Of a stretch of 64,000 bases of DNA, positions 14,585 to 63,904 are shown piece by piece (position 1 is the stretch's first letter; each line of letters begins with the position of its first letter). The DNA is from Candidatus Micrarchaeum sp. (GTDB taxonomy: Archaea > SpSt-1190 > DYHY01), in contig DYHY01000004.1 in assembly GCA_020723935.1 (NCBI GenBank), positions 7,634 through 71,633 on the forward strand, written 5' to 3'. Under the pieces are notes generated by a model that was given only the letters and a program-made list of their open reading frames with translations, was not told the origin of the DNA and searched no databases. A program made the translations under genes and the position numbers.

Positions 14585-15526
14585 ATGACTTCCACTGGCG
14601 CCTACATTTTCTCGTACCTGCTCTATATGGCGGTGCTCTCGGGCGCCGCCCTCTACGTCTGGAAGTACAGGAAGGGCCTCGACGAGATGTACGGCATGAT
14701 GATGGGAATGACGTTTGGCACGGTCGCAGGTCTTGCGACCGGCCTCTTCTACGCCCTCCCGAGCGGCGACTTTGTCGGCGGGGCGATTGTCGGGACCGTG
14801 GCCGGGCTCCTCTTCGGGATACTGCTAGGGGTGATCGGCGGGCCCCTCGGGATAATGGAGGGCGTTATGGGCGCCTTCATGGGGGGCTTCATGGGCTCGA
14901 TGACGGGGCAGATGGCGCGCCCGTTCCCGCTGGGCGCGTTCTCTCCGGTCTTCGCGGCGATATTCCTCGCGATGATGGCGGGGATCACCTATGCCGCGGA
15001 AACGGGCAAGACCTGCTGCGCTCCCGCGGGGGGTAAGCCGGAGGCGCCCGAGAGGCCGAAGCTGGTGAACCCGTCGGGCAAGTTCGTCGCCACGTGGACA
15101 GTCGTCGCCGCAATCCTCCTCTTCGCGAGCTTCGCGATAGACCTCTCGCCGTACTCCGCACAGGGCGCCCAGTCGACTGGCACGCAGAGCACGGCTCTTC
15201 CGGCGTCGCTTCGGGCGCTCACGGAGGAGCAGCAGACCCAGGCAGTCCAAAAGGACGGCTACCAGGAAGCGTCATTTAGGGTGACCGCGGGGAGGTACAC
15301 GCCTAACGTCATAGTCGTCAAGGCTGGGACGCCGCTTAGGCTGAACATCGCAGCAGACAGGAACGCCGGATGCGGGACTGACATCGTCTTCCCGGATCTC
15401 AGGGTGCGCTCGCTCATCCCCCCGGGGACGTCCAAGACGGTCGAGGTGGGGACCCCGTCCGCGGGGAACCATTCGTTCTCCTGCTCCATGGGCATGTTCC
15501 GCGGAAAAATCGTCGCGGTCGGTTAG
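14585..15526 (+). CDS. Met-rich polytopic membrane protein with C-terminal cupredoxin-like domain
   Basis: MMMGMTFG...GVMGAFMGGFMGSMTGQM TM region. C-terminal VKAGTPLRLNI...CGTDIVFPDL...HSFSCSMGMFRGKIVAV. Confidence 0.55.
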   Translation: MTSTGAYIFSYLLYMAVLSGAALYVWKYRKGLDEMYGMMMGMTFGTVAGLATGLFYALPSGDFVGGAIVGTVAGLLFGILLGVIGGPLGIMEGVMGAFMGGFMGSMTGQMARPFPLGAFSPVFAAIFLAMMAGITYAAETGKTCCAPAGGKPEAPERPKLVNPSGKFVATWTVVAAILLFASFAIDLSPYSAQGAQSTGTQSTALPASLRALTEEQQTQAVQKDGYQEASFRVTAGRYTPNVIVVKAGTPLRLNIAADRNAGCGTDIVFPDLRVRSLIPPGTSKTVEVGTPSAGNHSFSCSMGMFRGKIVAVG

Positions 15527-15556
15527 TCAGTTAAAAAGAGGTAAAGGGGGAGAAGA

Positions 15557-20385: not shown

Positions 20386-20873
20386 ACGATCGACTGCGAA
20401 GACTCCTGGAAGGCGCTTTATAAAAGTTAGATGCCCCGCGCTTCCTGCCGCGGCGCGCCATTTCGCCGGGCTTGGCTAGCTCCACTGCGCACAGCATCCA
20501 GAAGGCCGCCGCGCAGATGAGGAGGGCCTCCGCGAGCAGTATCAGCCAGTCGGACCCGATCCCGCGCGCGAAGGCGCGCGTCGCGGCCGCCGTCCATAGG
20601 AGGATGACGAAGAAGACGACGCCGGAATAGCCCGGCCGAAGATCCCCCCGCTGCCCCTGAGCGCCCGGACGCCCGCGACGATGGAATATGCCATGAGGCC
20701 GCCGCCGCGAGCCCGAGGAAAAGTATCGAAACAGTCAGGATGCCGCCCGTCCCCCTGCAAGCCGGCAGCGCTCAGTTTAAGGGTTCTGCCGGAAGACCCG
20801 GAACGTTATAAATGCCGGGCGGGGCCCCGCCCCCGTGCTAGGGACCAATATCGCCCTCGCGGCCGAAGCGGTG

Positions 20874-21881
20874 ATGTCCAACTTCAGGAGGCCCGCCTTT
20901 CCATACAAGCTCACATTCGCCGTCACCTACAACTGCAACTCGCGCTGCAAGACGTGCAACATCTGGCAGAACAGGAGCACGGGCGAGCTGACGCTCGGGG
21001 AGATAGACTCGTTCCTCAGGAAGAACGGTGGCTTCCGCTGGGTCGCCATAACGGGCGGGGAGCCGTTCCTGCGCCGCGACCTCCCCGAGATCTGTGAATC
21101 GTTCGCGAAGAACTGCCCGCTCCAGATACTCACAATAACGACCAATTCCCTCCTCCCGACGCTCCAGATAGAGGGGATAAGGAAGATAGCGAAGCTCAAA
21201 ATCCCCAGGCTCATCGTCACGCTGAGCTGCGACGGGGCGGGCAAGCTGCACGACGAGATACGCGGCGTGCCTGGGAACTTCGAGAAGCTCTGCCGGATAT
21301 ACTCGGAGCTGCGCGGCCTGCAGGACAGCCACTTCCGGATTTTCTTCGGGATGACGCTCTCGTCCTTCAACGTCGGGAAATTCGATGAGCTCTACAGGGA
21401 GCTGCATTCGCGCTTCCCGGAGATCGGGTACGACAGGATCCACGTGAACGTCTTCCACACCTCGAGCCACTTCTACAGTAACGCTGAGGGCGGCGCCGAG
21501 GAGAAGAGGGAGAAATGGAAGAGGGCGGCGATAGCGGAGATGAGGAACGTCCTCTTGAAGAGGAGGTTCTCCCCCTTCGATTCCCTCGGGTTCCTCGAGC
21601 GTAGGTACATCAAGGGCTCGATAAGATATATGAAGACGGGCAGGTCGCCGATGTCCTGCCTCTCGCTCTCGAGCTCGATGTTCCTCGACCCGCACGGGAA
21701 CCTCTATCCCTGCACAATATGGAACAGGAAGATGGCGAGCATCCGCGAGAACAAGGATTTGAGGAAGCTGTGGAACTCGCGCGAGTTTCGGGAGACCGCG
21801 CGCCTCGCCCGCGAGCTCAAATGCCCCAACTGCTGGACCCCTTGCGAGGCGTATCAGACGATACTCGGGAATCTTCTCTAA
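20874..21881 (+). CDS. radical SAM enzyme with C-terminal SPASM/Twitch-like Cys cluster
   Basis: CNSRCKTC (CxxxCxxC) near the N-terminus. C-terminal C-x17-C ... CPNCWTPC. Start taken at MSNFRR within track ORF 20835..21881. Confidence 0.8.
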   Translation: MSNFRRPAFPYKLTFAVTYNCNSRCKTCNIWQNRSTGELTLGEIDSFLRKNGGFRWVAITGGEPFLRRDLPEICESFAKNCPLQILTITTNSLLPTLQIEGIRKIAKLKIPRLIVTLSCDGAGKLHDEIRGVPGNFEKLCRIYSELRGLQDSHFRIFFGMTLSSFNVGKFDELYRELHSRFPEIGYDRIHVNVFHTSSHFYSNAEGGAEEKREKWKRAAIAEMRNVLLKRRFSPFDSLGFLERRYIKGSIRYMKTGRSPMSCLSLSSSMFLDPHGNLYPCTIWNRKMASIRENKDLRKLWNSREFRETARLARELKCPNCWTPCEAYQTILGNLL

Positions 21882-21935: not shown

Positions 21936-23222
21936 TTGCCAGTTATACCGCACCGGGGGAATACCAGAATGTCAACTAGTGATAGCAGAAAGTCTCTCCC
22001 GTGCATTTTGACCTCTAGTCCGAAGGCGCCTAAGGGGGGAAGCGGTATCAAGCTTCCGGGCGTTCCCAAGGGCCCGGTGCCCTACGTCGTTGGCGTGGGG
22101 GCCTTCCTGACGATGGTGCTCGCCGGATACCAGAGTTTGGCATACAGCCCGCCGGATTCCCCGGACTTCGAAGTCGACAGGCTAGTTGACCCCTACGCCA
22201 GGGACCTCGCTAAGACCAAGACGCAGGGCACGATAGCTGAACTTATCTACTACCGGCTCGCGGCGCTCCCGACCTACCTGACCGTGAAGGGCGCGATAGA
22301 TGAGTGCAAGACCAGTCCCCCCCCAGCCGAGGAGACCGCCTTCCTACACAATGCGGCGTGTGTTGATGCGGCCCTCGCGAGCTACCAAGCAGGCCTTAAT
22401 CAGGTCATCGCCGACATGGGGAACCCGGCATCCGTCGTCTACACACCCGTCGGGAGCGCGATGGGAGGGGTTGAGGGCAGGCTCTCCCTCCTAGACAGGC
22501 AGATCGCCGCGGCGAGGGCAGGGATCGCAGAGACCGGGGAAGCGTACAGGAACGGCGTGGACACCCTCGGCCGCCTCACCGCCGAGCGGGCCGGGATACA
22601 GCGCGAGCAGGACGAGAGGAGCGACGAGCTCACGCAGGCCACCTACGACAGGATGCAGGTGGAACAGCAACTCGCTGCCCTCACGGCCTACAACGTGGGG
22701 GAGGACGTGCCGCTCTCCGGCGTGAGGCGCTGGGCCGAGGACTTGTGGGAGCTGCCAACCGCGATCGGCCTCAAGGGCCAGCTCTCCGAGAAAGCGGCAG
22801 CCGAAGCGCAGGCGCAGGCGACCTTGGATTCCACGAACATCAGGGCGAAGGCGACGGACCTGGAGATCAAGGCGACAGAGAGCGTCCTCTCCAACGGGGA
22901 GAATATTGTCAAGGCCGCGTACGTTGATCCGACGCTGACCCTCCTGGGCGACTTCATGGGATATTCCGGCGCGAACGACGCAAGGGACGCGCAGGTCGTA
23001 AGCGTCCCGGAGGAACTAGATAACATCCGGCAGCTCTCCCGCGACTCGATACTGCAGGATTCGCAGGCGTTCGTGGAGGCTGCCCTCGCCGACGCAAGGG
23101 ACGATGCGGCAAGGAACAAGCCGAACCCCTTGGCCGGCCCCATAGCGACGGCGATCGGAGGCACTATCCTGACCCTGACGATTGCCGGAGCCACGCTCCT
23201 GGGTAGGAAGAGCAGGGGCTGA
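21936..23222 (+). CDS. membrane-anchored coiled-coil protein (N- and C-terminal TM helices)
   Basis: TM near residues 48-65 and 400-420. Long Ala/Glu/Gln-rich helical middle. No family recognised. Confidence 0.45.
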   Translation: MPVIPHRGNTRMSTSDSRKSLPCILTSSPKAPKGGSGIKLPGVPKGPVPYVVGVGAFLTMVLAGYQSLAYSPPDSPDFEVDRLVDPYARDLAKTKTQGTIAELIYYRLAALPTYLTVKGAIDECKTSPPPAEETAFLHNAACVDAALASYQAGLNQVIADMGNPASVVYTPVGSAMGGVEGRLSLLDRQIAAARAGIAETGEAYRNGVDTLGRLTAERAGIQREQDERSDELTQATYDRMQVEQQLAALTAYNVGEDVPLSGVRRWAEDLWELPTAIGLKGQLSEKAAAEAQAQATLDSTNIRAKATDLEIKATESVLSNGENIVKAAYVDPTLTLLGDFMGYSGANDARDAQVVSVPEELDNIRQLSRDSILQDSQAFVEAALADARDDAARNKPNPLAGPIATAIGGTILTLTIAGATLLGRKSRG

Positions 23223-26294: not shown

Positions 26295-28922
26295 CTAGAC
26301 AAGGAAGCTCACGTATCCCTTGCGCCCGGCCCATTTCAGGGCTTCGTAGGCGACGAGCACGCTCGAAGCAGTCAGGAACGCGAAGACCCAGTCGAGGGGG
26401 CCAAGGGCGACCGTCCGGAAGATCCTCTGCAGGAACGGGACGTACACTATCAGGACGTGCGCCGACATCAGGACGGCGATGGATGTCACGCCGACCCTGT
26501 TCGTGAGGATCCCTATCTTGAAGGCGGACTCGTCGAAGGAGCGGCAGTTAAGGACGTTGAAGACCTGGAAGATGGCGAACGTCGTGAAGGCCACGGTGGT
26601 CGCGCGCGTCTGGTCGCCCGCGAGGAAGTAGGCCCAGAATATGGAGAGGGTCCCTAGCGCCATTATCAAGCCCGTTATCGCCATGTTGATCAGCATGTTC
26701 CTGGATATCAGCGGCTCGCGCATCCCCCTGGGCTTCCTGGACATCAGGTTCCGCGCGCGCGTGGGCTCCAGGCCCAAGGAGAGGGCAGGGGGCCCGTCGA
26801 TCGAGAGGTTTATCCACAGGAGCTGGACGGGGAGTATCGGGAGTGGGAGGGAGATGGCGATGCTCAGAAGTATCAGGAGGATCGCGCCGATGTTGGTCGA
26901 GAGCTGGTAGCGGATGAACTTCCTGATGTTCTCGTATATCGCCCGCCCCTCCTCGACGGCCCCCACGATGCTCGCGAAATTGTCCTCTGTGAGGACCATC
27001 GCAGAGGCCTCCTTCGCCACGTCCGTCCCCGTGAGGCCCATGGAGATCCCGATGTCTGCCTTCCTGAGGGCGGGCGCGTCGTTCACGCCGTCCCCCGTCA
27101 TCGCGACGACGTAGTCCTTCTGCTGCAGGGCCTTCACGATCTTGAGCTTGTGCTCGGGCGAGACGCGGGCGTAGATGACCATCTCCTCGACGATGTCCTC
27201 CAGGGACGTGACCTCGTCTATCTCGCGGCCAGTGAGGACCTTGGGCTCCAGGCCCAGGGACTTGGCTATGGCGATCGCCGTGCCGGCGTGGTCGCCCGTT
27301 ATCATGACGACCTTTATCCCCGCGCGCATGCACCTCTCTATCGCGCCCTTCACCTCCTCGCGCAGGGGGTCCATCATCGCCTGCAGGCCCACGAACACGA
27401 GGTTTTCCTCGTGCAGGTGCTCGCCGGGGAAGAGGGGCTTGTATGCGAAACCGAGGATCCTGAGGCCCTCGGAGGAGAAGACGTCGTTCGCCTCCAGGGC
27501 CTCCTTCCTGTGGCGCTCAGTCATCTGGAACTCGCGGCCGCCGTAGAGTATCTTTGTGCACTTGGCTATCACATCGTCGGGCGCGCCCTTGACTAGGAGC
27601 ATGGGGTTTGCCCCGAGGAGGTTCACCGTGCTCATGAGCTTCCTCTCGCTCGTGAACTCGAACTCATCTATCCTCTTGAAGACGCGCTCCAGCTCCTCCT
27701 TGTGTATCTCGCCCTTGGCGGCGCTCACGATGAGCGCAATCTCCGTCGGGTCCCCCGAGACCTTGTCGTGGAAGAAGGAGGCGTTGTTGCAGAGGGCTCC
27801 TATCTGGAGGAGCATCTCGAGGGCGGGCGTGCGGTCGCCAAGGATCTTGCCGTGGACGTTGTAGCCCTGGCCTGATACCTCACACGTGCGCCCGTCGTAG
27901 AAGACCTTGGTCACGGTCATCTGGTTCTTCGTGAGGGTCCCCGTCTTGTCCGTGCAGATGACGTTCACGCACCCGAGGGTCTCAATGGACGCGAGCCTGC
28001 GCACGAGGACGTGGCGGTGGACCATCCTCCTTATCCCGACGGCGAAGGTTATCGTCATCACGATGGGCAGGCCCTCGGGGAGCGCGGCGACTATCATCGC
28101 GACGGATGTGAGGAGGACGTCCAGGAACGGCCACTTCTTGACGAACAGGAGGAAGCCGAAGACGAGGACGGAGAGCGCGAGGATCCCGTAGGAGAGCTGC
28201 TTGCTCATCCTGTCTATGCTCTTCTGGAGGGGCGTGCTCTCGAACTCTATCCCCTCTATGAGCTTGGCGATCTTGCCTATCTCCGTGCGGGGGCCCGTCT
28301 CGACGACGACCGCCGCGGCCCGCCCGGTCGCGACGACCGTGCCCGAATAGGCCATGTTCTTCCTCTCCGCAAGGGGCGTGTCCTTGTGCAGCGTCTCGGC
28401 GTGCTTCCGGGACGGCGACGATTCGCCCGTGAGCGCGGCCTCTAGGACGGAGAAGGAATGATGCTCGGTGATCCTCGCGTCCGCCGGGACGCGGTCGCCC
28501 GTCTCCAGGAATATGATGTCGCCGCGCACGAGCTGGGGTGCCTCTGCTAGCTGCTTGAGGCCGTCGCGCAGGACCTTCACCTTGAGCGCGGACATCCTCT
28601 TGAGGGCCGCTATCGCGTTCTCGGCGTTCCTCTCCTGCGCGAAGCCTATCACGGCGTTTATGAGGAGAATCAGGGCGATCGCGAGGGACTCGGCCCGGTC
28701 GCCGAGGATGAACGAGAGGACGGATGCGGCGAGGAGCAGGAGGACGGGGAGGCTCTTGAACTGCTCGAGGAAGAGCACTGCGTCGTGGCGGCGCTTGGCC
28801 TCCGCGAGGAGGTTCCTCCCCTCCGCGGAAAGGCGCCTGGAAGCCTCGGCCGACGAGAGCCCCTCCTTCCCGGTCCCAAGCTCCGCAAGGAGGACGTCGA
28901 TGTCCTTCGCATGATGCGACAT
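26295..28922 (-). CDS. P2-type cation-transporting ATPase (Ca2+/SERCA-PMCA-like)
   Basis: 875 aa. ICTDKTGTLT, MITGDHAGTAIAIA, MTGDGVNDAPALRKADIGISMG, 10 TM. Confidence 0.9.
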   Translation of the reverse strand: MSHHAKDIDVLLAELGTGKEGLSSAEASRRLSAEGRNLLAEAKRRHDAVLFLEQFKSLPVLLLLAASVLSFILGDRAESLAIALILLINAVIGFAQERNAENAIAALKRMSALKVKVLRDGLKQLAEAPQLVRGDIIFLETGDRVPADARITEHHSFSVLEAALTGESSPSRKHAETLHKDTPLAERKNMAYSGTVVATGRAAAVVVETGPRTEIGKIAKLIEGIEFESTPLQKSIDRMSKQLSYGILALSVLVFGFLLFVKKWPFLDVLLTSVAMIVAALPEGLPIVMTITFAVGIRRMVHRHVLVRRLASIETLGCVNVICTDKTGTLTKNQMTVTKVFYDGRTCEVSGQGYNVHGKILGDRTPALEMLLQIGALCNNASFFHDKVSGDPTEIALIVSAAKGEIHKEELERVFKRIDEFEFTSERKLMSTVNLLGANPMLLVKGAPDDVIAKCTKILYGGREFQMTERHRKEALEANDVFSSEGLRILGFAYKPLFPGEHLHEENLVFVGLQAMMDPLREEVKGAIERCMRAGIKVVMITGDHAGTAIAIAKSLGLEPKVLTGREIDEVTSLEDIVEEMVIYARVSPEHKLKIVKALQQKDYVVAMTGDGVNDAPALRKADIGISMGLTGTDVAKEASAMVLTEDNFASIVGAVEEGRAIYENIRKFIRYQLSTNIGAILLILLSIAISLPLPILPVQLLWINLSIDGPPALSLGLEPTRARNLMSRKPRGMREPLISRNMLINMAITGLIMALGTLSIFWAYFLAGDQTRATTVAFTTFAIFQVFNVLNCRSFDESAFKIGILTNRVGVTSIAVLMSAHVLIVYVPFLQRIFRTVALGPLDWVFAFLTASSVLVAYEALKWAGRKGYVSFLV

Positions 28923-53910: not shown

Positions 53911-54513
53911 CTAGCGCTTCTTGCGCCTGGGCGCGGGCCTCTTGGGCGCGGGCCTCTTGGACTCGAACTTCTCCTCCTGGCCTGCGACGACGTCCGCGAT
54001 GTGGGACGTGTACTTGGAAAGATCCTTGTAGAGGATCTTCCCGGCGGCCCAGAAGAGGGCGAGGGACACCGCGACGATGAACCAGATTGATATCGTTGCT
54101 AGCATCTGCCCGACGACCGGTATCAGCGCCAGCATCCCAGGCAGGAACGGCGTCAGGAGGATGAGGACCAAGGCGAGGACTATCTCCTTTATCGCCTTCT
54201 TGAGGTCCGCAGCCTCGCTCCCCCTAACGAGGGGCGCGTAGCCGACAATTGTCTCCGCTGCCGTGTCCGCGAGAGCGAGTACATCCTGGATGACTGCTAT
54301 CGCGAAGTACAGCATGACCACGATCAGCGACGCGATCACGAGGAATCCCGTCGAGATCTGGGCGCCTGGAATCACCGAGCCGAGCGATTGCACGGCCGGG
54401 GACACGAGGGTCGCTATGAACCACACGGAGAACAGAACCGCGAGGTTCAGTATAATCCTTGGTAGTTTCTGTCTTATCCTATTGCCTAGTTCGGTCATTC
54501 TTTCGAATGTCAC
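53911..54513 (-). CDS. membrane protein of unknown function
   Basis: 200 aa, 4-5 TM helices, Lys/Arg/Pro-rich C-terminus. Confidence 0.45.
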   Translation of the reverse strand: MTFERMTELGNRIRQKLPRIILNLAVLFSVWFIATLVSPAVQSLGSVIPGAQISTGFLVIASLIVVMLYFAIAVIQDVLALADTAAETIVGYAPLVRGSEAADLKKAIKEIVLALVLILLTPFLPGMLALIPVVGQMLATISIWFIVAVSLALFWAAGKILYKDLSKYTSHIADVVAGQEEKFESKRPAPKRPAPRRKKR

Positions 54514-54955
54514 CAGAGCTAGTGGTAACTAACTACGTATTTATGGGTTGGTAGGGGTTTAGCCTATTTTCGGACCAAAAGGGAGATACCGAGGTGGAAT
54601 CTGCGAATTTCAATCGTTTTTTCGGCTTGAAGGAGTTGAGCTGGAAGTGGGGGCCGGAGGTCTGAGCCATCCGGTCCGTGAAAGTTAGGCGAGGGCTGAA
54701 AGTCCGACTCGCCCTGCGAGGGATAGATAAGGGAGGGGCCTCCCCCGTGGCGGTCAGGAAAGCCCCAAGGCTCAGTTGCGCCACGTCCCCGGGGGCGAGA
54801 ACCGATATCGCCCCGCAGGAAGCGCAGTGGTGAACCCACGTCCTATCCATGGTAGAGCCGCCCGAGAGGAACCAGTACCTGCCGCACCTGTTGCAAGTCT
54901 GCATCCTCGGGCTTCTTTCCATGGGGAAGCTTCCCCCGCGGAAAGGTAAAGGTGT

Positions 54956-55600
54956 TTGCAGGCACCTCCCTTCCGGTATTTTTTTATCCGGCGCGGGCGG
55001 CGGAGCGCGGGAAGCGAAGCGGACCAAAAGCCTGAAGACTGGAAGAAGCGCCTGACGCCGCAGGAGGTCTACGAGCCGCAGGAGGATTCCGAGCTCCTGC
55101 TCTCCGTCATCAGGAAGCTGGGCCTCTCGGGGAAGCTCGCCTGCGACATGGGGACGGGCTCCGGGATCCTCGCAAACGAGCTTGCGAAGGGGTTCGGGGC
55201 CGTCGTCGCGGCGGACGTGAACCCCGCGGCGCTCGATCCTAAGAACTTCGCAGCGAAAAACATCCGTCCGGTCGAAAGCGACCTGTTCTCCGGCATTCCG
55301 GAGCGCAGGTTTGACTTGGTAGTCTTCAACTCCCCCTACCTTCCAGGCGACGAGGATGCGAGGTGGTCGTGCGGGCCGGACGCAAAGGTGGTCGCCGATT
55401 TCCTCGCGCGGGCGGCGGGGAGGCTTTCCGAAAAAGGGGAGATACTCCTCCTCATCTCGAGCCTCACGCCGCCGCAGGCGTCCGCTGCGGCGCGCAGGCT
55501 CTTTCGCAGGGTCGAGATCGCCGGCGAGCGCAGGCTCCCGGGCTTCGAAACCCTCTTCGTGCTAAGGCTTTCTGGACCCAAGGGCCCTCATGCCGATTGA
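54956..55600 (+). CDS. HemK/Mtq2-like SAM-dependent methyltransferase (N5-glutamine methyltransferase family)
   Basis: VYEPQEDSELLL, DMGTGSGILA, VVFNSPYLP (NPPY-type). True start upstream is uncertain. Confidence 0.6.
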   Translation: MQAPPFRYFFIRRGRRSAGSEADQKPEDWKKRLTPQEVYEPQEDSELLLSVIRKLGLSGKLACDMGTGSGILANELAKGFGAVVAADVNPAALDPKNFAAKNIRPVESDLFSGIPERRFDLVVFNSPYLPGDEDARWSCGPDAKVVADFLARAAGRLSEKGEILLLISSLTPPQASAAARRLFRRVEIAGERRLPGFETLFVLRLSGPKGPHAD

Positions 55601-56173
55601 GCCCTTGATCTTCGCGAGGATCCTGCCCTTGAACGAGTTCCTCCTCCTGCCGCGGGAAGCCCCGATGGCGCGGGCGGCGGCGACTATCAGGGCGGCCACC
55701 TGGTCGGCGTTGAGGTTGTCCGTGTTTATCTCGATGTCGACTTGCGGCCGCGCCCCGACGTCCACGCCGTAGAGCCTCTTGTAGCGGGCGATGTTCTTCT
55801 CGTCGCGCATCTTCGTGAAGTAGAGAGCGCGCTCCATGGGGACCCCGTCCTCCTTCGCCCTGCGGGCCGCGCGCACTTCCACGGAAGCAGAGAGCCAGAC
55901 ATAGAGGTCGGCGTCGACGAGCCAGCACGCGAGGCGCGAGCCGGTTATCGAGTTCCTGCTCCTGTCGGAGCGCGTTATCAGGCGGCCGTCGACGAGGTAG
56001 TCTATCCGGTCGTCCTTCTCGGCCTCCGCCTGGATCGTCTCGAACGGGACGCCCCGCTCCTCGGCTATCTGCCTCAACGTGTAGTTGACGACCTGCAGGC
56101 CTATGGCCTTCGCGACCTTGTTGCACGCGGTCGTCGTGCCCGCCCCGGAAAGGCTCGATATCGCTATTTTCAT
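55562..56173 (-). CDS. cmk: cytidylate kinase, archaeal type
   Basis: MKIAISSLSGAGTTTACNKVA P-loop, 203 aa. It is the C-terminal part of composite track ORF 55562..57745. Confidence 0.7.
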   Translation of the reverse strand: MKIAISSLSGAGTTTACNKVAKAIGLQVVNYTLRQIAEERGVPFETIQAEAEKDDRIDYLVDGRLITRSDRSRNSITGSRLACWLVDADLYVWLSASVEVRAARRAKEDGVPMERALYFTKMRDEKNIARYKRLYGVDVGARPQVDIEINTDNLNADQVAALIVAAARAIGASRGRRRNSFKGRILAKIKGSIGMRALGSRKP

Positions 56174-56217: not shown

Positions 56218-57816
56218 TCAGGCCGGGAGCAGGTAATAGGAGAACTGGCCCGTCGGGTCTGTGGCCATGAGCTTTGCCGCGGGGTTCTTGTCCATTATCT
56301 GCCTGCACTGGCCGCCCTTGAACGGCGGGACGGTGCACCAGAAGCCGTAGTCGAAGATCGCGCACGGCGCCTTCTCCAGGGCCTTGGCGCGCAGCGCCGG
56401 GTCCTGCAGGTACCAGGGCTGGGCGGAAGTCCTCCCCAGGTCTATGTGCAGGGAAGTCACGTGCGAGAAGATCGTGCAGTTCTCCGGGAGCCGGACGTCG
56501 CGCGCGAACTCCGCGTAGGACCTCGCCTGGTTGGCCTCCGCTATCCTCGGGGCGGGCGTGGAGACCGAGGGGTAGAACGCGACGAGGAAATATGCGCAGA
56601 GCAGGACCGAGAACGCCGCAAGGTGCCTTCCCGAGGGGAGGAGTAGGGCGAAGGCGGACGCCGCGATCGCGAACGGGGCGTAGTAGGAGACCACGTAGCG
56701 CACGTCCGTGCCGTACCTCACGCTTCCGGCGTAGAAGGCGGCGTAGAGGAGGAAGAGGGAGAGGAACCAGAGCAGGAGGACGAGTGCGGCCCTCCTGCGG
56801 CCGCCAGCCAGGAGGACGAGCGTCCCTGCGACCGCGAGGGCGGAGAGGAGGAGCGGGTGCTCTATCGCCGGATAGCCGAAGAGGAAGAACCCCGCGTTCA
56901 CCGGGAGGTTCTGGCCGAAGTACTCCCGGGAGAACTTGGCGCCCGTCGCGCCCCAGGAGCTCTTCGTCGCGCCCAGGTAGACGTGGAGGAGGTGGGGCGC
57001 GGAGAGGAGGAGAACGAGGGCTGCCGACGCGTAGAAGGCCGGCTTCAGGAGGGTCGCGCGCGGGCCGGCGAGGATCGCGGCGGCCAGGTAGAAGAGAGGC
57101 AGGAGGACGCCCGTCTCGGCCTTGGACTGGATCGCCATCGCGAGGGTCGTTCCCAGGAGGAGGAGGAAAACCTGCTCCTTCCCCTCGGAAAAGAGGAGGA
57201 GGGAAAGGAAGGAGAGGAGGGAGAGGAAAAGGAACGTCGTCTCGGCGGCGATCGTGTTGGACCATACGATCGCGACCGGGAGGAGGTTGATGAGGAGGGC
57301 GGAGAGGAGGGCGGGGCGCTCCCTCTTCCCGAAGAGGAGGTAGGTGCAGAGGAACATCAGGAAGCCGGAGGCGAGGAATGCCGCCTGGGAATATGCGAAG
57401 CCCGCGGCCCTCGACGGGCCGAAGGCGTGGAAGACGAGGGCCATCAGGAAGGGATGGGCGGCCGGAGCCTTGTTGATGATGCAGTCGTAGCAGGCCGAAG
57501 CGTCTCCCCAGTTGCACATGCACGACCGCCCCTCGAGGAGGACGTTCCTCGCCATGTTCTCGTAGAGATCCTCGTCGAAATAGACGCGGTTCGTCAGCGG
57601 CACGAAGGCGAGGCGGAACGCGAGGGACGCGAAGAGGATGAGCACCAGGGCGAGCCAGGCTTTCCTCGAGACGCGGGAGAAGGCGGCGCGGATCTTCCTC
57701 CAGGACAGGGCGGCGAGGAGGATCGTGAGCCCGAGGGCAGCCCACATGGAAATCACGGTGCCGTATTCGATTATGTTAAGCTGCAGGGGTGTCGTCGCCA
57801 TGAGCTCGCCCGACAT
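56218..57816 (-). CDS. GT-C glycosyltransferase, ArnT/PMT-like (GT39 family)
   Basis: 532 aa, more than 10 TM. FDEDLYENMARN (DE...Y loop motif). Confidence 0.7.
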   Translation of the reverse strand: MSGELMATTPLQLNIIEYGTVISMWAALGLTILLAALSWRKIRAAFSRVSRKAWLALVLILFASLAFRLAFVPLTNRVYFDEDLYENMARNVLLEGRSCMCNWGDASACYDCIINKAPAAHPFLMALVFHAFGPSRAAGFAYSQAAFLASGFLMFLCTYLLFGKRERPALLSALLINLLPVAIVWSNTIAAETTFLFLSLLSFLSLLLFSEGKEQVFLLLLGTTLAMAIQSKAETGVLLPLFYLAAAILAGPRATLLKPAFYASAALVLLLSAPHLLHVYLGATKSSWGATGAKFSREYFGQNLPVNAGFFLFGYPAIEHPLLLSALAVAGTLVLLAGGRRRAALVLLLWFLSLFLLYAAFYAGSVRYGTDVRYVVSYYAPFAIAASAFALLLPSGRHLAAFSVLLCAYFLVAFYPSVSTPAPRIAEANQARSYAEFARDVRLPENCTIFSHVTSLHIDLGRTSAQPWYLQDPALRAKALEKAPCAIFDYGFWCTVPPFKGGQCRQIMDKNPAAKLMATDPTGQFSYYLLPA

Positions 57817-57865
57817 TCCAGTCCCTCCTACCTCCCGGCGCCTGGCGCGCGGGCCCCTTGTTTCC

Positions 57866-59608
57866 TCACTTCGTGCGCCCCTTGCTCTTGCCCTTCTTCG
57901 CGCCCGCGGCCTCCTTCCTGCAGGTTATGTGGACGCCTTCCGCGAACAGGTGCTCGGCGCGCGTCTTCTCCATCATGTCGAGTGCGTCGTCTATCGAGGA
58001 GACTATCGGGTCCCCGTGGAGGTTGAAGGATGTGTTGAGCACTATCCCGTATCCCGTGCGCTTCCTGACGCGCGATATCAGGGCGCGGTATTCCCTGTTC
58101 TCGCCCCCGACCATCTGCGGGCGCGCGGAGCCGTCGACATGCGTGACGGCAGCAAGGTCGGCCTTCTTCTCGGGCCGGCACATGTAGCCCATCGTCATGA
58201 ACCTGTCGGGGATCCTGTCGTAATCCGAGAAGAGCCTGGCGGCGTCCTCCTCAAGGAGCGAGGGGCAGAAGGGCTGGAACCAGTTCCTGGACTTTATGCG
58301 CAGGTTCAGCTCGTCCTTCACCGCCAGGGACGACGCCGGGGCGACTATGCTCCTGTTCCCGAGGGCCCGGGGGCCGTATTCCATCCCGCCCTGGAACCAG
58401 AAGACGTACTTCTCCTCGTCCTCGACGATGTCAGCGGCCTCGGAGGCGAAGCCCCTCTCCTCGCTTGCGCGAAGGCCTGGCCTCTTCTTCACCGCCGCGA
58501 GCACCGATCCCTTGGTCTCGCCGGGGCCGAAGTAGGCAAGGGGCATTTTCTTCCCGTGTGGGACGCCCGCTATCTGCAGGGCCGCCCCGAGGGCGAGGCC
58601 CCCGTCCCCCATGTGCGGGAAGACGAACCAGTCTTCGGGCGACAGCTCCGCGCGTATGCGCATGTTGAGCTTGATGTTGGACGCCACCCCACCGCTCCAG
58701 CAGATGCGCCTCATCCCGGTCTCGGCGACGGCGTTCCTGAAGAGCTGCAGGAGGTGCTTTTCCAGCGTCCGCTGCGCCATCGAGGCGAAATCCTCCGGCG
58801 GCGTGCGCCAGGCCAGGCGCTCGAGGAGCGCGTACTGGGTTATCGGGTCGTGCTTCGCGCGCACCGCAAGGCCGCGCACGGAGAAGAAGTCCTCTAGCTT
58901 GTTCTCCTTCTTGTGGCTGTAGTCAGCGAGGCTCATAACCTTGCCCTCGTCCTCCAGCTCGCGCATCCCGAGGATCGTCGTCACCTGCTCGAAGAATATC
59001 CCGATCGAATCGCGGGCGGGGATCGCGGAGATCCTCCTTATCCTCCCGTCCTCGCACACGTTCACGGAGCCCGAGAGGCCGTCGCCCACGCCGTCGACCG
59101 TTATGCACAGGGCGTCCCCCATGCCGCTGGGGTAGTAGGCGCTCGCCGCGTGCGCCGCGTGGTGGTCGACGTAGGAGAGCCTCGCTTGCGCGAAGCCCTC
59201 GCGCCGCACGAGGGAGGCGAAATATCCCTCGTTCACCCTCCTCAGGATCCAGCGGGGGCGATCGACCGTCGTCAGGACGAACTTTGCCGCCCGCCTCAGG
59301 CCCACGAGGGGCGGCCGGTCGATCTTCCTCCTGCGGAACTTGTAGTAGTTCCTCCCGATGCCGGGAAAGAAGCGCGACGACGTCTTGGCGACGTCGACTG
59401 TTGTGAACGCGACGTCCGTGATCTCCGGGCGTGAGAGCCCGGCTATCCGCAGGCACGCCTCGACCGAGTGGGCCGGGTATCCGATGTCCAGCTTCTTCCT
59501 TGAGAGCCTCTCCTCGTTCACGGCCGAAAGGACCCTCCCTTCCCCGTCGACGATCGCCGCCCCGGCATCGTGCCCGTCCCAGATCCCCAGTATCGCGTGT
59601 CCCGCCAT
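57866..59608 (-). CDS. carbamoyltransferase (NodU/CmcH family)
   Basis: MAGHAILGIWDGHDAGAAIVDGEGRVLSAVNEERLSRKK N-terminus, 580 aa. Confidence 0.8.
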   Translation of the reverse strand: MAGHAILGIWDGHDAGAAIVDGEGRVLSAVNEERLSRKKLDIGYPAHSVEACLRIAGLSRPEITDVAFTTVDVAKTSSRFFPGIGRNYYKFRRRKIDRPPLVGLRRAAKFVLTTVDRPRWILRRVNEGYFASLVRREGFAQARLSYVDHHAAHAASAYYPSGMGDALCITVDGVGDGLSGSVNVCEDGRIRRISAIPARDSIGIFFEQVTTILGMRELEDEGKVMSLADYSHKKENKLEDFFSVRGLAVRAKHDPITQYALLERLAWRTPPEDFASMAQRTLEKHLLQLFRNAVAETGMRRICWSGGVASNIKLNMRIRAELSPEDWFVFPHMGDGGLALGAALQIAGVPHGKKMPLAYFGPGETKGSVLAAVKKRPGLRASEERGFASEAADIVEDEEKYVFWFQGGMEYGPRALGNRSIVAPASSLAVKDELNLRIKSRNWFQPFCPSLLEEDAARLFSDYDRIPDRFMTMGYMCRPEKKADLAAVTHVDGSARPQMVGGENREYRALISRVRKRTGYGIVLNTSFNLHGDPIVSSIDDALDMMEKTRAEHLFAEGVHITCRKEAAGAKKGKSKGRTK

Positions 59609-59609
59609 C

Positions 59610-60359
59610 CTATCCCGAAATCCTCCTTTCCTCTTGCTTTCCGCCAGCCATTCTTTTGAAGATCAGCTCCCTGACTATCGTCTTGAGTATGAGGAATCCG
59701 TCCTTGAAGGTGCCCAGCCTGCTCTCGCCGTGGAGGCGGGGCTTCTCGGTGCTCGGGACCTCGATCGTGCGCAGGCCCGCCTTGGCGCAGCGGATGGATA
59801 TCTCCGTCTCTATGCCGAAGCCCTTGCTGGAGAGGGCGAGCCTCCCGACCGCGCTCCGCCTCATCGAGCGATAGCCGTAGCACAGGTCAGTGTACCTCGT
59901 CCCCCAGAAGAGATTGACGAGGGCGACGAAGAGCTTGTTCCCGACGTAGCGCAGGGGCGTTATGTCCTCGCTCCCGCCGCCACGCATGAAGCGCGAGCCC
60001 ATGCAGACGTCGTATCCGCCGCTCTCGACCTTCGATATCAGGACGGGGAGCTCGTCTGCCGTGTGCGAGCAGTCGGCATCCATTATCACGATGACCGGCG
60101 CCTGGCACGCCCCCAGGCCCGCTATTATCGCCGAGCCCTTGCCCACGGAGTCGAAGATCACTCGCGCCCCCGCGCGCCTGGCGATCGCGACCGTCCCGTC
60201 CTTCGAGTGGCCGTCGACGATTATGATCTCGGTCCTGCGGCCGCTCCGCTTGGAGAAGGACCTGACGTCCGAGAGCACGCGGGGGAGATTGCGCTCCTCG
60301 TTTATCGTCGGGATCACGATGGAGACCGAGGGCCTAGGTGACGTAGAAGCTCTTGGCAA
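59610..60359 (-). CDS. GT2 glycosyltransferase, dolichyl-phosphate sugar synthase (Dpm1-like)
   Basis: VSIVIPTINEE, IIVDGHSKDGT, DADCSH (DxD). Confidence 0.8.
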   Translation of the reverse strand: MPRASTSPRPSVSIVIPTINEERNLPRVLSDVRSFSKRSGRRTEIIIVDGHSKDGTVAIARRAGARVIFDSVGKGSAIIAGLGACQAPVIVIMDADCSHTADELPVLISKVESGGYDVCMGSRFMRGGGSEDITPLRYVGNKLFVALVNLFWGTRYTDLCYGYRSMRRSAVGRLALSSKGFGIETEISIRCAKAGLRTIEVPSTEKPRLHGESRLGTFKDGFLILKTIVRELIFKRMAGGKQEERRISG

Positions 60360-62871
60360 AGCCGTTGTTGAAAACCTCCCGGAACCTCCTGGACGGGCCC
60401 CCGTCCAGTATGAAGGTCTCCGTGAAAACGCTCCCCGCGGCGTCGTCGGGCATCAGGAACGCGGTCGGGCCGGCGGCGTAGACGGCTCCGGGCGTCTTGG
60501 TCTGGTTCCCGAAATCCACGTCGAGGACGCCCTCGCGGGTCACGATCTTGCTCAGAACCCCGTACCCCGGCTGGCCCGAGCTCCCTATGAGGGGGATTGT
60601 CGTCCCGTTGGCGTCGACCATCGCTATGAAATAATGCTGCGCGGCATAGACCTTGGCCGGCCCCAAGGGCGTGTCGCGGTCGCCGACGAGCTGGAAGGAG
60701 AGGTACTGTGTGGGCCGCCCGCCTATCCTGGACGCCCAGTACATCTTCCCTATCATCGTCGCGTCGTGGGTCATGAGGTGGGGTATTGCTATCCTGAATC
60801 CCGTAGAGTTGTACCCGAAGGAAAGGAGGCCGCCGGGAGAGAGCTCCAGGAACGGGGCTATCACGGTCCCGTCCTTCTGCGCAAGGTAGTCCTGGAAGAC
60901 TGCGTAGCCTTCCTCGAGCGTGCTTTCCGAGAGTACGCCCCCCGCGGTGTCCAGGCTCGCGGCGAGGTGGTGGGTCATCCCGCGGTACGTGACGTAGAAG
61001 TCAAGGCGGTACTTTCCGGGAAGGAGGGTCGCCGAGACGTTCTGGACGAAGCCGGGGCAGACCTTGGGTATCGGCGTGGACGGATCCCTGCAGGTTGCGA
61101 CGGCCAGGTGGCTGTCCGGTATGAAATTGGCGTAGTATTCGGGCGCGAAGACGCCGTTGTCGAAGGTCGTAACCTCTTCTCCCGAGGGCTTGGAGACGAC
61201 GAGCTTCACCTCGGGGTAGGGGAGGGAGAGCATCCAGGCCGCAGCCTTGTCCTCGTTCGTCTCGGTGAACATGAGCCCGAGCTCCTCGTCCATCTTGAGG
61301 ATCCGGTTGCCCCCGTCGGCGACGGAGGGGCGCCTGGCGAAATACTGTATCCAGTAGCCGTAGTCCCACCACGCGACCACGGGGCTCTCCGCCCTCATGT
61401 TGAGGTCGGTCCACTTGAAGTTCTCGAACCATTCCTCGTTCACGGACGTGTGTATGCCCCTCGCCTGCGCGAGGATCCCGGGCGCGCCCATCCCGACGTA
61501 TATCTGGGCGAAGGCGGCCATGACGAGGATCACCGAGGCCGCCTTGATGTATCCCCTGATTCCCTGCGGCCCGAAGCCTGCGCGGAACAGGAACGCTATC
61601 GCCTGCCCGGCGGCGAACGCGGCGATGGGCATGAGGTTCATGAACAGGCGCATCCCGCGCGAGGCCGCGTAGATGTTGAAGCCGAGGAAGAACGCAGTCA
61701 GGATGTCCTCGTCGCGCTTCGTGAAGAGGGGTATCGTGAGGGTGAGGAGCGCGATCGGGAAGACGAGCTTCATCTGCTCCCAGTAGGCGTTCCCGCCCTG
61801 CCAGAAGAAGGGCTCCCAGGGCCATGCCCAGCTCGTCGGCTGGTTCTCGCCGACCGAGGAGCCGTGGACGCTGGAGCGCAGGGGGTCGGCAACCTCCGAG
61901 AAGACCCGCCCGACGATCGAGGCGGGCGCCTGCCCCTTCGCCGCGGCCGCGAGGAAGGCGATCGCGACGGTCACGACGACCGCCGCCGCGAGCCTGTAGG
62001 CCCGCTCGTTCCCCTTCCCCGACAGGAACGGCATCCTGAGCCTCAGGACGAAATAGGAGATGATGAGGAAGGCCGCCGAGCCCATGAGTATGAGGTTCCT
62101 GGAGTCGGAGAACTGCCACAGGCCGCCCGCGGAGCCGTACCCCGCCTTCATCAGCATCGGCAGGAGGACGAGCACAGCCGTCCCGAACACGTCCTTCCCT
62201 GCGCGGTAGCGGAAGATCACCTGGAAGATGTGGAAGAGGACGACGGGGACGACGAAGAGGATGTAGCTGGAAAGGCTCATCGCCCCCAGGCCCATCGCGA
62301 CCCCGGCGAGGATGCTGTAGAGGAGGACCGGCGCGAGGCGCTCCCTCTCCTGGACGTACCTGTAGACGAAATAGGTGGCGAGGACCATGAAGAAGAACGC
62401 GGCTGTGTCCTTGTCAGAGAAGCCAGCGACCGACCTGAAGAGGGCGCCAGGGACTATCGCGAAGAGGAGGCCCCCGACGAACCAGTCGCGGCCCGCCCGG
62501 TGCCCGAGGTAGAAGAGGGTGATGATCGTGAGGAACGTGAAGATCGGCGCGTACCATTTCGCGGCGGACTTCACCCCCTCGAACGTCTCTAGGCAGAACG
62601 GGTTGATCTTGCAGAGGAGCGCGATGGAATACGTCGGGACGTGCAGGTCCCCCCCGTCGTAGAGGAGCGGATAGTACCTGTCCTCCTCGACGCGCGGGAG
62701 CTCCCCGCCCGTGACGATCCTTTCCGCCGCGTTGTGGAAGTAGACGGTGTCAAACTCGAGCATGTGCGGGTCGCCGAGGCTCTGGAGGCGCGTCCCGAAC
62801 GCTATCCAGAGGACGAGGAAGATGGCTGCTAGCGCCAGTATCCCTGCCGCCAGCTTCTTCGCGTCCTGCAC
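60334..62871 (-). CDS. aglB: oligosaccharyltransferase AglB (STT3 homolog)
   Basis: WWDYGYWI motif, 13 TM N-terminal domain, 845 aa. Confidence 0.9.
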   Translation of the reverse strand: MQDAKKLAAGILALAAIFLVLWIAFGTRLQSLGDPHMLEFDTVYFHNAAERIVTGGELPRVEEDRYYPLLYDGGDLHVPTYSIALLCKINPFCLETFEGVKSAAKWYAPIFTFLTIITLFYLGHRAGRDWFVGGLLFAIVPGALFRSVAGFSDKDTAAFFFMVLATYFVYRYVQERERLAPVLLYSILAGVAMGLGAMSLSSYILFVVPVVLFHIFQVIFRYRAGKDVFGTAVLVLLPMLMKAGYGSAGGLWQFSDSRNLILMGSAAFLIISYFVLRLRMPFLSGKGNERAYRLAAAVVVTVAIAFLAAAAKGQAPASIVGRVFSEVADPLRSSVHGSSVGENQPTSWAWPWEPFFWQGGNAYWEQMKLVFPIALLTLTIPLFTKRDEDILTAFFLGFNIYAASRGMRLFMNLMPIAAFAAGQAIAFLFRAGFGPQGIRGYIKAASVILVMAAFAQIYVGMGAPGILAQARGIHTSVNEEWFENFKWTDLNMRAESPVVAWWDYGYWIQYFARRPSVADGGNRILKMDEELGLMFTETNEDKAAAWMLSLPYPEVKLVVSKPSGEEVTTFDNGVFAPEYYANFIPDSHLAVATCRDPSTPIPKVCPGFVQNVSATLLPGKYRLDFYVTYRGMTHHLAASLDTAGGVLSESTLEEGYAVFQDYLAQKDGTVIAPFLELSPGGLLSFGYNSTGFRIAIPHLMTHDATMIGKMYWASRIGGRPTQYLSFQLVGDRDTPLGPAKVYAAQHYFIAMVDANGTTIPLIGSSGQPGYGVLSKIVTREGVLDVDFGNQTKTPGAVYAAGPTAFLMPDDAAGSVFTETFILDGGPSRRFREVFNNGFAKSFYVT

Positions 62872-62938
62872 GGCAGGGAGGACCGGCGGAGCGTTTTAAA
62901 CCTTTTCCGGCGCCGCGCGCGGCGAGAGAGTTTTAAAC

Positions 62939-63904
62939 ATGCGGGGCGGCCGCATCCCGAAGGACATGCCCCAAAAGCGCCGCGGAAGGCCTGGGATAAC
63001 GATCATCTGCACTGTCAGGAACGAGGCGGGCTCCGTCGGGGAGCTCGTCTCATCCGTCCTCTCGGGCGAGAGGAAGCCGGACGCGTTCATAATAGTGGAC
63101 GGCGGATCGACCGACGGCACCCCCGCCATCCTGCGCAGGAGGTTCGGGAGGAGGGTGCGGGTCATAGTGGCGCCCGGCGCAAACATAGCGGCGGGGAGGA
63201 ACGCGGCGGTGCGCGCCGCGGGGACGGAGTGGATAGCCTCCATCGACGGAGGGTGCGTGGCGAGGCCGGGATGGCTTTCCGCCCTCGAGAGGGGGTTTGC
63301 GGGCGCTGACGTAGTCTCGGGCGCCTACGTGCCCCTCGCGAGGAGCGCCTTCGAGCGCGCGCAGGGAAGGATCGTGTGCAAGGACCCGGAAAGCCTCGGG
63401 GAAGGTTTCCTTCCCTCTTCGCGCTCCGTCGCCTTCAGGAAGTCCGCCTGGGAGAAGGCTGGCGGATATCCGGAAGGGACATACACCGCCGAGGACACGC
63501 TCTTTGACATCAATCTGCGCAAGACTGGGGCGCGGTTTTCCTTCGCGAGGGACGCGATAGTCGAATGGAGGATGCGCCCCGACATCAGGTCCTTCGAAAG
63601 GCAGTTCTACAACTACGGCCTGGGGGACGGAAGGACGGGCCTCGTCCTCGGCATGCCGGGCAACCTCCTCCTCGTCCTCGCTTTCAAGGCGGCCGTCTGG
63701 GGCCTGCTCCTCAGCATGTCGGCAAACCCCCTCCTCCTGTTCCTCGCCGCCCCGTTCGCGCTCCTCGTCCTCGCCGAGAGCGCATATCACGCCCTCCGGG
63801 ACCCCGCGCACTTCCACGACTATTTCGTCCTGGTCCTCGCCAAGCGCGCGGGATATTCCCTCGGCGCGTCCATCGGGCTCTTCAGGGGGCTCTCGCCTTG
63901 GTGA
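62939..63904 (+). CDS. GT2 family glycosyltransferase with C-terminal TM helices
   Basis: ITIICTVRNE, FIIVDGGSTDGT, AEDT. Hydrophobic C-terminus. Confidence 0.7.
   Translation: MRGGRIPKDMPQKRRGRPGITIICTVRNEAGSVGELVSSVLSGERKPDAFIIVDGGSTDGTPAILRRRFGRRVRVIVAPGANIAAGRNAAVRAAGTEWIASIDGGCVARPGWLSALERGFAGADVVSGAYVPLARSAFERAQGRIVCKDPESLGEGFLPSSRSVAFRKSAWEKAGGYPEGTYTAEDTLFDINLRKTGARFSFARDAIVEWRMRPDIRSFERQFYNYGLGDGRTGLVLGMPGNLLLVLAFKAAVWGLLLSMSANPLLLFLAAPFALLVLAESAYHALRDPAHFHDYFVLVLAKRAGYSLGASIGLFRGLSPW

Follow-up and report, generated by a model that had tools for sequence, protein, structure and literature searches.

A putative O-carbamoyltransferase and GT-C glycosyltransferase cassette behind aglB in a Candidatus Micrarchaeum contig

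What a carbamoyltransferase is doing among membrane glycosyltransferases, in line with the gene of an archaeal oligosaccharyltransferase, is the question raised by positions 56218-63904 of a 64,000-nucleotide stretch of Candidatus Micrarchaeum sp. DNA (contig DYHY01000004.1; this 64-kb stretch is called the window, its GC content is about 64%, and all positions are given in its numbering). The initial annotation had read the locus as an N-glycosylation cluster in which AglB is combined with a NodU/CmcH-type carbamoyltransferase (CT), two family 2 glycosyltransferases (GT2a and GT2b) and a GT39-type enzyme (GT-C). In Pfam and NCBIfam profile scans of the window proteins, all five genes were found at these positions, and their GC content is 0.86-0.92 at third codon positions against 0.44-0.53 at second positions, a coding-type bias as in real genes of a 64% GC genome. 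The identities of AglB, both GT2 enzymes and CT stood, and the GT39 label did not. The conserved unit, as described below, is not an "AglB plus CT" cluster; it is an autonomous cassette in which CT is followed by GT-C, with frequent partners, and which occurs in DPANN archaea and a few bacteria.

The carbamoyltransferase and the GT-C enzyme

CT is encoded on the minus strand (57866-59608, 580 aa) and matches both halves of its family, Carbam_trans_N over residues 6-344 (E = 6e-39) and Carbam_trans_C over residues 398-560 (E = 1e-52), so that a Kae1/ASKHA-like N-domain is followed by a YrdC-like C-domain in one chain. Its sequence matches in the PDB are GdmN, NovN, TobZ and VtdB, with E values of approximately 1e-55 to 1e-58, while HypF reaches only E = 1e-3. 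The AlphaFold2 model of CT (pLDDT 85) superposes over its full length on TobZ with a TM score of 0.78-0.80; HypF (0.34) and Kae1/TsaD (about 0.38-0.39) give single-domain matches only. Nine residues are invariant among 24 homologues (H13, H149, H150, H153, D172, D335, K439, M471 and S527), of which H13, H149, H153, D172 and D335 align to identical residues of GdmN, while K439, M471 and S527 align to TobZ K443, M473 and S530, the positions mutated in deposited TobZ variants. The family is recognised by metal-binding histidines and aspartates in the Kae1-like domain and by YrdC-domain residues that form carbamoyl-adenylate, and CT has both sets. As judged from sequence, CT is an O-carbamoyltransferase of the sugar/natural-product type, a member of the TobZ/NodU/CmcH family, and not an orthologue of any characterised member. 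No transmembrane segment is predicted in it, so its step must be a cytoplasmic one that precedes that of GT-C. A strongly basic segment, residues 73-136 (18 Lys/Arg, 3 Asp/Glu), falls outside the HMMER alignment to GdmN and is a possible membrane- or phosphate-binding surface.

The GT-C gene lies next to CT on the same strand (56218-57816, 532 aa) and its product matches Pfam PMT_2 (PF13231, E = 4e-12), with about 11-13 transmembrane helices and a C-terminal extracytoplasmic domain of approximately 110 aa. No sequence match was found in the PDB. The AlphaFold2 model (pLDDT 88.7, pTM 0.91) adopts a GT-C_A fold, and the features that mark this fold, namely a multi-span core, an acidic residue in loop 1 and similarity to solved GT-C_A enzymes, can all be recognised in the model. 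The motif R77...F-D81-E82-D-x-Y places the pair D81-E82 in the first extracytoplasmic loop, the usual site of the catalytic acid in GT-C enzymes. Across 55 diverse members D81, P180, F361, R373 and W493 are invariant, and E82, Y85, W185, E234, C494 and C504 are nearly so. The fold is about equally distant from AglB, ALG12, PMT, ArnT and AftB, the top structural matches being AglB. A word-indexed profile search gave only the same 10 proteins; the exhaustive search used instead collected 677 cluster representatives at E <= 1e-30 with full-length match. The enzyme belongs to an uncharacterised PMT_2-type subfamily with a GT-C_A fold and could be assigned to none of the characterised families tested.

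The GT39/PMT identity of GT-C was rejected, since the match is to the broad PMT_2 family only, PF02366 and the MIR domain are both absent, and the PMTs are no closer in fold than the other enzymes compared. For the same reasons, the NCBI label of the homologue P0123, "glycosyltransferase family 39 protein", over-reaches. Rosetta-stone fusions were also sought, and none of ten long GT-C relatives (643-853 aa) carries a CT or GT2 domain; eight of them have PMT_2 (one together with PKD) and two have no Pfam domain at all.

Cysteines are a further feature of the enzyme. Residues 99-112 carry C99, C101, C109 and C112 (ACMCNxGxxxxCxDC) on a predicted beta-hairpin in loop 1, beside D81-E82, and the C-terminal domain has the conserved C447, C485, C494 and C504. 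These cysteines may form disulfides or a metal site.

Conservation of the cassette and its place behind aglB

A CT profile run against 185,579 species-representative genomes matched no fewer than 523 loci, and the 80 best of these were analysed (numbered loci are given an L below); their hosts are mostly Micrarchaeota, Aenigmatarchaeota, Altiarchaeota, Woesearchaeota and Marsarchaeota, with nine metagenome-assembled genomes (MAGs) labelled as bacteria. Neighbouring genes were classified with hidden Markov models (HMMs) built from the window and locus L006, and counts are given over the 78 non-redundant loci that have enough flank and come from other species. In 63 of these 78 loci (DPANN, Marsarchaeota and some bacteria) the gene directly 3' of CT, in the same orientation, is a window-type GT-C, and a family 4 glycosyltransferase (GT4) takes this place in another 12, all of them Micrarchaeota, so that a glycosyltransferase gene immediately follows CT in 75 of 78. 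The gap between CT and GT-C is at most 10 nt in 55 of 64 pairs, with many 4-nt overlaps. Pairwise identities of the two proteins correlate (r = 0.83), with CT much better conserved than GT-C (mean 54% versus 29%). Of the 40 fully flanked loci, 30 have a radical S-adenosylmethionine/SPASM (rSAM) gene and 23 a gene of a Dpm1-like GT2 no more than 5 kb from CT.

The typical DPANN order is GT2, rSAM, GT-C', CT and GT-C, where GT-C' is a second, paralogous GT-C encoded directly 5' of CT (L004-L007, L012, L016, L029, L031 and others); the window's clade is without GT-C'. The paralogue has no WWDYG motif and gives only weak NCBIfam matches, to archaeo_STT3 and Agl23. The idea that GT-C or this upstream paralogue is a cryptic oligosaccharyltransferase was rejected, as no WWDYG-type motif is found in 25 open reading frames of the upstream paralogue; roughly half of the reading frames of the downstream type show a motif that resembles it loosely, (F/L/I)D-Y-G-(Y/F)-W-C.

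The window has its own rSAM gene (20835-21881, plus strand; Pfam Radical_SAM and SPASM), which scores 397 bits against an HMM of the cassette-linked rSAM genes and matches no specific NCBIfam family. It lies 35 kb from the cassette, unlike its orthologues in most DPANN loci, which sit inside the CT/GT-C cassette. The gene after it (21936-23222, plus strand) encodes 428 aa without Pfam match, with an N-terminal transmembrane segment and a C-terminal one followed by a basic tail; this product lacks N-X-S/T sequons, and the loci fetched encode no homologue of it.

The 12 loci with GT4 (L034-L036, L039, L045, L047, L053, L057, L063, L070, L075 and L081; GT4 of about 377 aa) keep an upstream radical-SAM gene, immediately upstream in most, and look like an alternative wiring of the same CT. 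In the bacteria-labelled MAGs with CT followed by GT-C (L026, L050, L064, L067-L069, L071, L080 and L085; Ignavibacteria, Saganbacteria, Deltaproteobacteria, Pirellulales and Saccharibacteria), CT is 45-49% identical to that of the window, and a subset (e.g., L064, L069 and L071) has the rSAM and GT2 partners too. Either cross-domain transfer or mis-binning accounts for these loci.

The neighbourhood of AglB is a different matter. The order STT3 (with WWDYG), GT2, CT and GT-C is found in every contig with a CT identity of at least 60% (L001 = L010, L002/L003, L087 and L088; five further contigs), with WWDYG-bearing AglB orthologues at the same position in L001, L002, L087 and L088. This recurrence, like that of the CT/GT-C pair in 63 of 78 loci, shows that the arrangement is no mere coincidence. 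Among the loci analysed, none with a CT identity of 55% or less has AglB adjacent to CT. The AglB-CT cluster proposed initially thus recurs, but as a feature of one lineage, and the CT/GT-C pair occurs elsewhere without AglB. Since below this identity AglB is not adjacent and the pair is kept, we regard the cassette as the unit of function. Upstream, locus L002 has an agl-type set made of an epimerase, GT2b, a Wzx-like Polysacc_synt protein and two GT4s. We therefore read the window's arrangement as a mobile cassette (Dpm1-like GT2, TobZ-type CT and GT-C) inserted directly behind aglB, inside an agl-type cluster, in this lineage.

In the window, aglB (60334-62871, minus strand) encodes an archaeal oligosaccharyltransferase of the STT3 family with 845 aa, recognised by STT3, STT3-PglB_core and AglB_core-like matches. 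It has multiple N-terminal transmembrane segments and WWDYG at residues 501-505, as members of STT3/GT66 do, and its score against NCBIfam archaeo_STT3 is 75 bits at a cut-off of 450, which makes it a divergent member; by its sequence it is a divergent but motif-complete oligosaccharyltransferase. GT2a (59610-60359, minus strand, 249 aa; Glycos_transf_2, E = 1e-28) is a Dpm1/AglJ/ArnC-like enzyme with the motif MDADCSH, in which the DAD motif is present. Its NCBIfam scores are all below cut-off: AglJ 155 bits (cut-off 325), haloarchaeal dolichyl-phosphate hexose transferase 91 (cut-off 375), PpgS 59 and ArnC 58. GT2a is predicted to be a polyprenyl(dolichyl)-phosphate hexose synthase.

On the minus strand, aglB, GT2a, CT and GT-C follow one another closely in this order. 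The stop codon of aglB overlaps the predicted start of GT2a, a single nucleotide separates the GT2a stop from the ATG of CT, which is preceded by GGAGGA, and the gap between CT and GT-C is 49 nt with GGAGG inside it. This operon-like packing behind a single TATA-like box suggests one operon. The box, TTTAAAA at 62894-62900 (minus strand), has its centre about 26 nt 5' of the aglB GTG, a spacing that fits the usual archaeal distance from TATA box to start, and so it probably drives a leaderless aglB-GT2-CT-GT-C transcript.

GT2b (62939-63904, plus strand, 321 aa) is divergent from aglB and encodes a membrane-anchored GT2 with Glycos_transf_2 and Glyco_trans_2_3 matches and C-terminal transmembrane segments. 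The intergenic region between the two genes (62872-62938) is 67 nt long and holds two TTTAAA(A) elements, the second of which, TTTTAAA at 62931-62937 (plus strand), faces GT2b. Since no more than about 5 nt separate this element from the first ATG, at 62939, translation of GT2b probably begins at Met10 (62966); the protein collection has no 321-aa version. L088 and L002 have GT2b orthologues 5' of STT3 in opposite orientation, and in L003 the end of the contig carries a short piece of one. A scan for bacterial-type promoters and terminators was uninformative for an archaeon, and an Rfam scan of the window gave two tRNAs only.

A candidate pathway and competing explanations

The gene identities, the intact catalytic motifs, the operon-like packing, and the conservation and co-inheritance of CT followed by GT-C were observed; from these, and by analogy with known pathways, we infer which substrates are used, in which order the steps run, that a carbamoylated product forms and what accepts it. 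With moderate confidence, we propose that GT2a makes a dolichyl-phosphate hexose, that CT O-carbamoylates the sugar, and that GT-C transfers it on the extracytoplasmic side. To hypothesize in more detail, GT2a would move a hexose from a nucleotide sugar to dolichyl or polyprenyl phosphate at the cytoplasmic face. The YrdC-like domain of CT would form carbamoyl-adenylate from carbamoyl phosphate and ATP, and the Kae1-like domain would then O-carbamoylate a hydroxyl of the lipid-linked sugar or of its nucleotide-sugar precursor. A flippase would carry the carbamoyl-hexose lipid across the membrane, where the loop-1 Asp-Glu pair of GT-C would serve to transfer the carbamoyl-hexose to an extracytoplasmic acceptor. 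The unlinked rSAM/SPASM protein probably adds a further tailoring step.

The acceptor is the weakest point of the model. In the window's lineage a protein-bound N-glycan or an S-layer glycoprotein would be favoured, because the cassette appears to be co-transcribed with aglB. The wider proposal is a tentative one, held with less confidence than the pathway itself: CT followed by GT-C, usually with rSAM and a Dpm1-like GT2, may be an undescribed and widespread envelope-tailoring system of DPANN archaea, present in a few bacteria too, which would place an O-carbamoylated and possibly rSAM-modified sugar on surface glycoconjugates by means of a GT-C from a new family; the window's lineage would have wired it into the aglB operon, with N-glycans being decorated with carbamoyl-sugars after their transfer.

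Several observations weigh against this proposal. AglB adjacency is limited to one narrow clade, and the N-glycan is for this reason a weakly supported acceptor. No flippase gene (GtrA/GtcA- or ArnE/F-like) is present in the window operon or in the cassettes L001-L006, the Wzx-like Polysacc_synt gene of L002 being the only flippase-type gene among these, and so the dedicated small flippase that accompanies GT2 and GT-C in three-component systems (GtrA/B/C, CsbB/GtcA/YfhO) was not found. Among the window genes scanned there is no source of carbamoyl phosphate, and an ornithine transcarbamoylase gene neighbours CT in only 3 loci, two of which are the same contig. The Dpm1-like GT2 lies near CT in only 23 of the 40 fully flanked loci, so that the donor synthase is not always linked, and, with the best 80 of at least 523 CT matches covered, more distant CTs may have other contexts. 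Finally, 12 Micrarchaeota loci pair CT with the cytoplasmic GT4 and not with GT-C; CT therefore has no strict need for GT-C, and its substrate may be a nucleotide sugar or a lipid-linked oligosaccharide still being built.

This last point leads to one alternative, in which CT tailors a lipid-linked oligosaccharide or a nucleotide-sugar precursor for AglB, and GT-C makes a separate transfer without carbamoyl group, e.g., of a plain hexose; carbamoylation would in this case belong to classical N-glycan assembly at the cytoplasmic face. The presence of CT within the aglB operon in the window's clade fits this well, as does the GT4 that follows CT in the 12 Micrarchaeota loci, since GT4 enzymes are cytoplasmic and typical of lipid-linked oligosaccharide assembly, and TobZ and NovN are known to carbamoylate sugar hydroxyls of soluble substrates (PDB descriptions and established knowledge). 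It seems unlikely all the same, as in most genomes CT and GT-C are coupled, at most 10 nt apart, where no AglB is in the vicinity, and their identities co-vary; because the pair is so tightly coupled without AglB, unrelated steps for the two enzymes are hard to explain.

In an alternative that we find doubtful to a similar degree, the cassette modifies a non-protein surface molecule (a glycolipid, a lipoglycan or an envelope polymer), and its position at aglB is a matter of gene-order drift within a surface-glycan region. Enzymes of comparable logic do act on such acceptors: ArnT on lipid A, PpgS/Rv3779 on arabinogalactan and CsbB/YfhO on teichoic acids. The absence of AglB from nearly all cassette loci speaks for it, together with the occurrence of the cassette in MAGs labelled as bacteria, a domain without AglB-type N-glycosylation (Ignavibacteria L064 and L069, Saganbacteria L071), and the fold of GT-C, which is as near to ArnT and AftB as to the protein-modifying GT-C enzymes. 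What counts against drift is that all five related contigs, with CT identities as low as 60%, retain the tight aglB operon, and, to a weak degree, that GT-C has a conserved cysteine-containing C-terminal soluble domain and AglB as its top structural matches.

A role of CT outside glycan metabolism (HypF-like hydrogenase maturation, TsaD/Kae1-like t6A formation or small-molecule chemistry, with coincidental neighbours) is very improbable and largely refuted by context, since the weak partial matches to the HypF_C_2 (E = 6e-10), TsaD and HypF models are due to the shared Kae1-like fold, the hypF equivalog gives 43 bits at a cut-off of 466, no acylphosphatase or zinc-finger domain of HypF is matched in Pfam, the domain order and the full-length fold are those of TobZ (TM about 0.8, with HypF at 0.34 and Kae1 at about 0.38 over parts only), and a glycosyltransferase gene directly follows CT in 75 of 78 loci. 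Such a role had been named at the outset as what would overturn the glycan reading, and the neighbours of CT are in fact glycan-related in all loci examined.

The proposed pathway of GT2a, CT and GT-C is the best supported of these readings. That carbamoylated archaeal N-glycans had not been described, as stated initially, agrees with the titles and abstracts available to us, where nothing bears on them and where CT is in no case linked to AglB, DPANN or Micrarchaeota, GT39, S-layer glycans, or ArnT and undecaprenyl phosphate; most subscription journals lie outside the coverage of this search. With the same coverage, the search found no paper on carbamoyltransferases in bacterial polysaccharides or lipopolysaccharides.

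If the proposal is true, Archaea would gain their first described carbamoylated glycan and their first carbamoyl-sugar lipid carrier. The system would add O-carbamoylation to the chemistry of archaeal surface glycans, and a new tailoring step to the pathway that runs from GT2 through a lipid-linked monosaccharide to GT-C. A sizeable and uncharacterised GT-C subfamily, with its 677 cluster representatives, would be defined as well, together with a conserved envelope trait of DPANN archaea, whose surfaces mediate attachment to the host and about whose glycobiology very little is known. Since the cassette has just three to five genes and a predicted mass signature of +43.006 Da on a hexose, the proposal is directly testable by heterologous expression or by glycoproteomics of DPANN co-cultures.

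Gene surroundings and relation to known systems

On the 3' side the operon is followed by cmk and by genes of a methyltransferase, archease, RtcB, TrkH and the L3-L4-L23 ribosomal operon. The cytidylate-kinase-like cmk (55562-56173, minus strand) begins 44 nt past the GT-C stop, a position kept in L001 and L088. Two neighbours without Pfam match are conserved in the window's clade only: the gene at 53911-54513 (minus strand; 200 aa, four transmembrane segments), with synteny kept in L001, L002 and L003, and that at 54533-55027. A cupredoxin-domain protein by a copper-type P1B ATPase (YHS and two HMA domains) and, further on, a separate P2-type cation ATPase are encoded at 14585-18196 (plus strand) and 26295-28922 (minus strand); a DsbD-like membrane protein is found at 7329-8402 and, like all of these genes, is unrelated to the cassette. 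The remainder of the window consists of housekeeping genes.

With TobZ, NovN, GdmN, VtdB, NodU and CmcH, CT has in common the two-domain architecture, the fold and the catalytic residues, and several of these enzymes carbamoylate sugar hydroxyls. However, CT is only 26-29% identical to the characterised O-carbamoyltransferases, the NodU equivalog gives 123 bits at a cut-off of 1000, and the window's subfamily has the strongly basic segment 73-136 that lies outside its HMMER alignment to GdmN. Unlike its known relatives, which belong to antibiotic or Nod-factor clusters, CT is encoded beside membrane glycosyltransferases. MoeM5 of moenomycin biosynthesis reportedly carbamoylates a sugar linked to a lipid-phosphoglycerate, for which the literature search gave no confirmation.

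The GT-C enzyme can be compared with PMT1/2/4 of GT39, with which it has in common the GT-C_A fold, the expected dolichyl-phosphate monosaccharide donor and the Asp-Glu pair in loop 1; the PMTs differ by their PF02366 and MIR domains. The combination of a GT2, a tailoring enzyme and a GT-C is known from ArnC/ArnD/ArnT, which add 4-amino-4-deoxy-L-arabinose (L-Ara4N) to lipid A, from LgmA/LgmC/LgmB of Bordetella and FlmF2/NaxD/FlmK of Francisella, and from PpgS/Rv3779 of mycobacteria. Tailoring in the ArnC/ArnD/ArnT-type systems is done by a deformylase or deacetylase, whereas the present cassette has an O-carbamoyltransferase that depends on ATP and carbamoyl phosphate, often with an rSAM/SPASM protein in addition; furthermore, the window's GT-C is only about 13% identical to ArnT (GT83), and the hosts of the cassette are mainly DPANN archaea.

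An archaeal pathway for comparison is AglD/AglR/AglS of Haloferax volcanii, where dolichyl-phosphate mannose made by a GT2 is flipped, and the final mannose is added to the protein-bound N-glycan by a GT-C-like enzyme encoded near aglB. The Haloferax pathway has neither a carbamoyltransferase nor a radical-SAM protein, and the cassette described here usually lies away from aglB. By analogy, though, both would combine, in an archaeal agl cluster, AglB with a second enzyme that uses a dolichyl-phosphate monosaccharide, and AglD/AglR/AglS may thus serve as the precedent for the acceptor proposed in the window's lineage.

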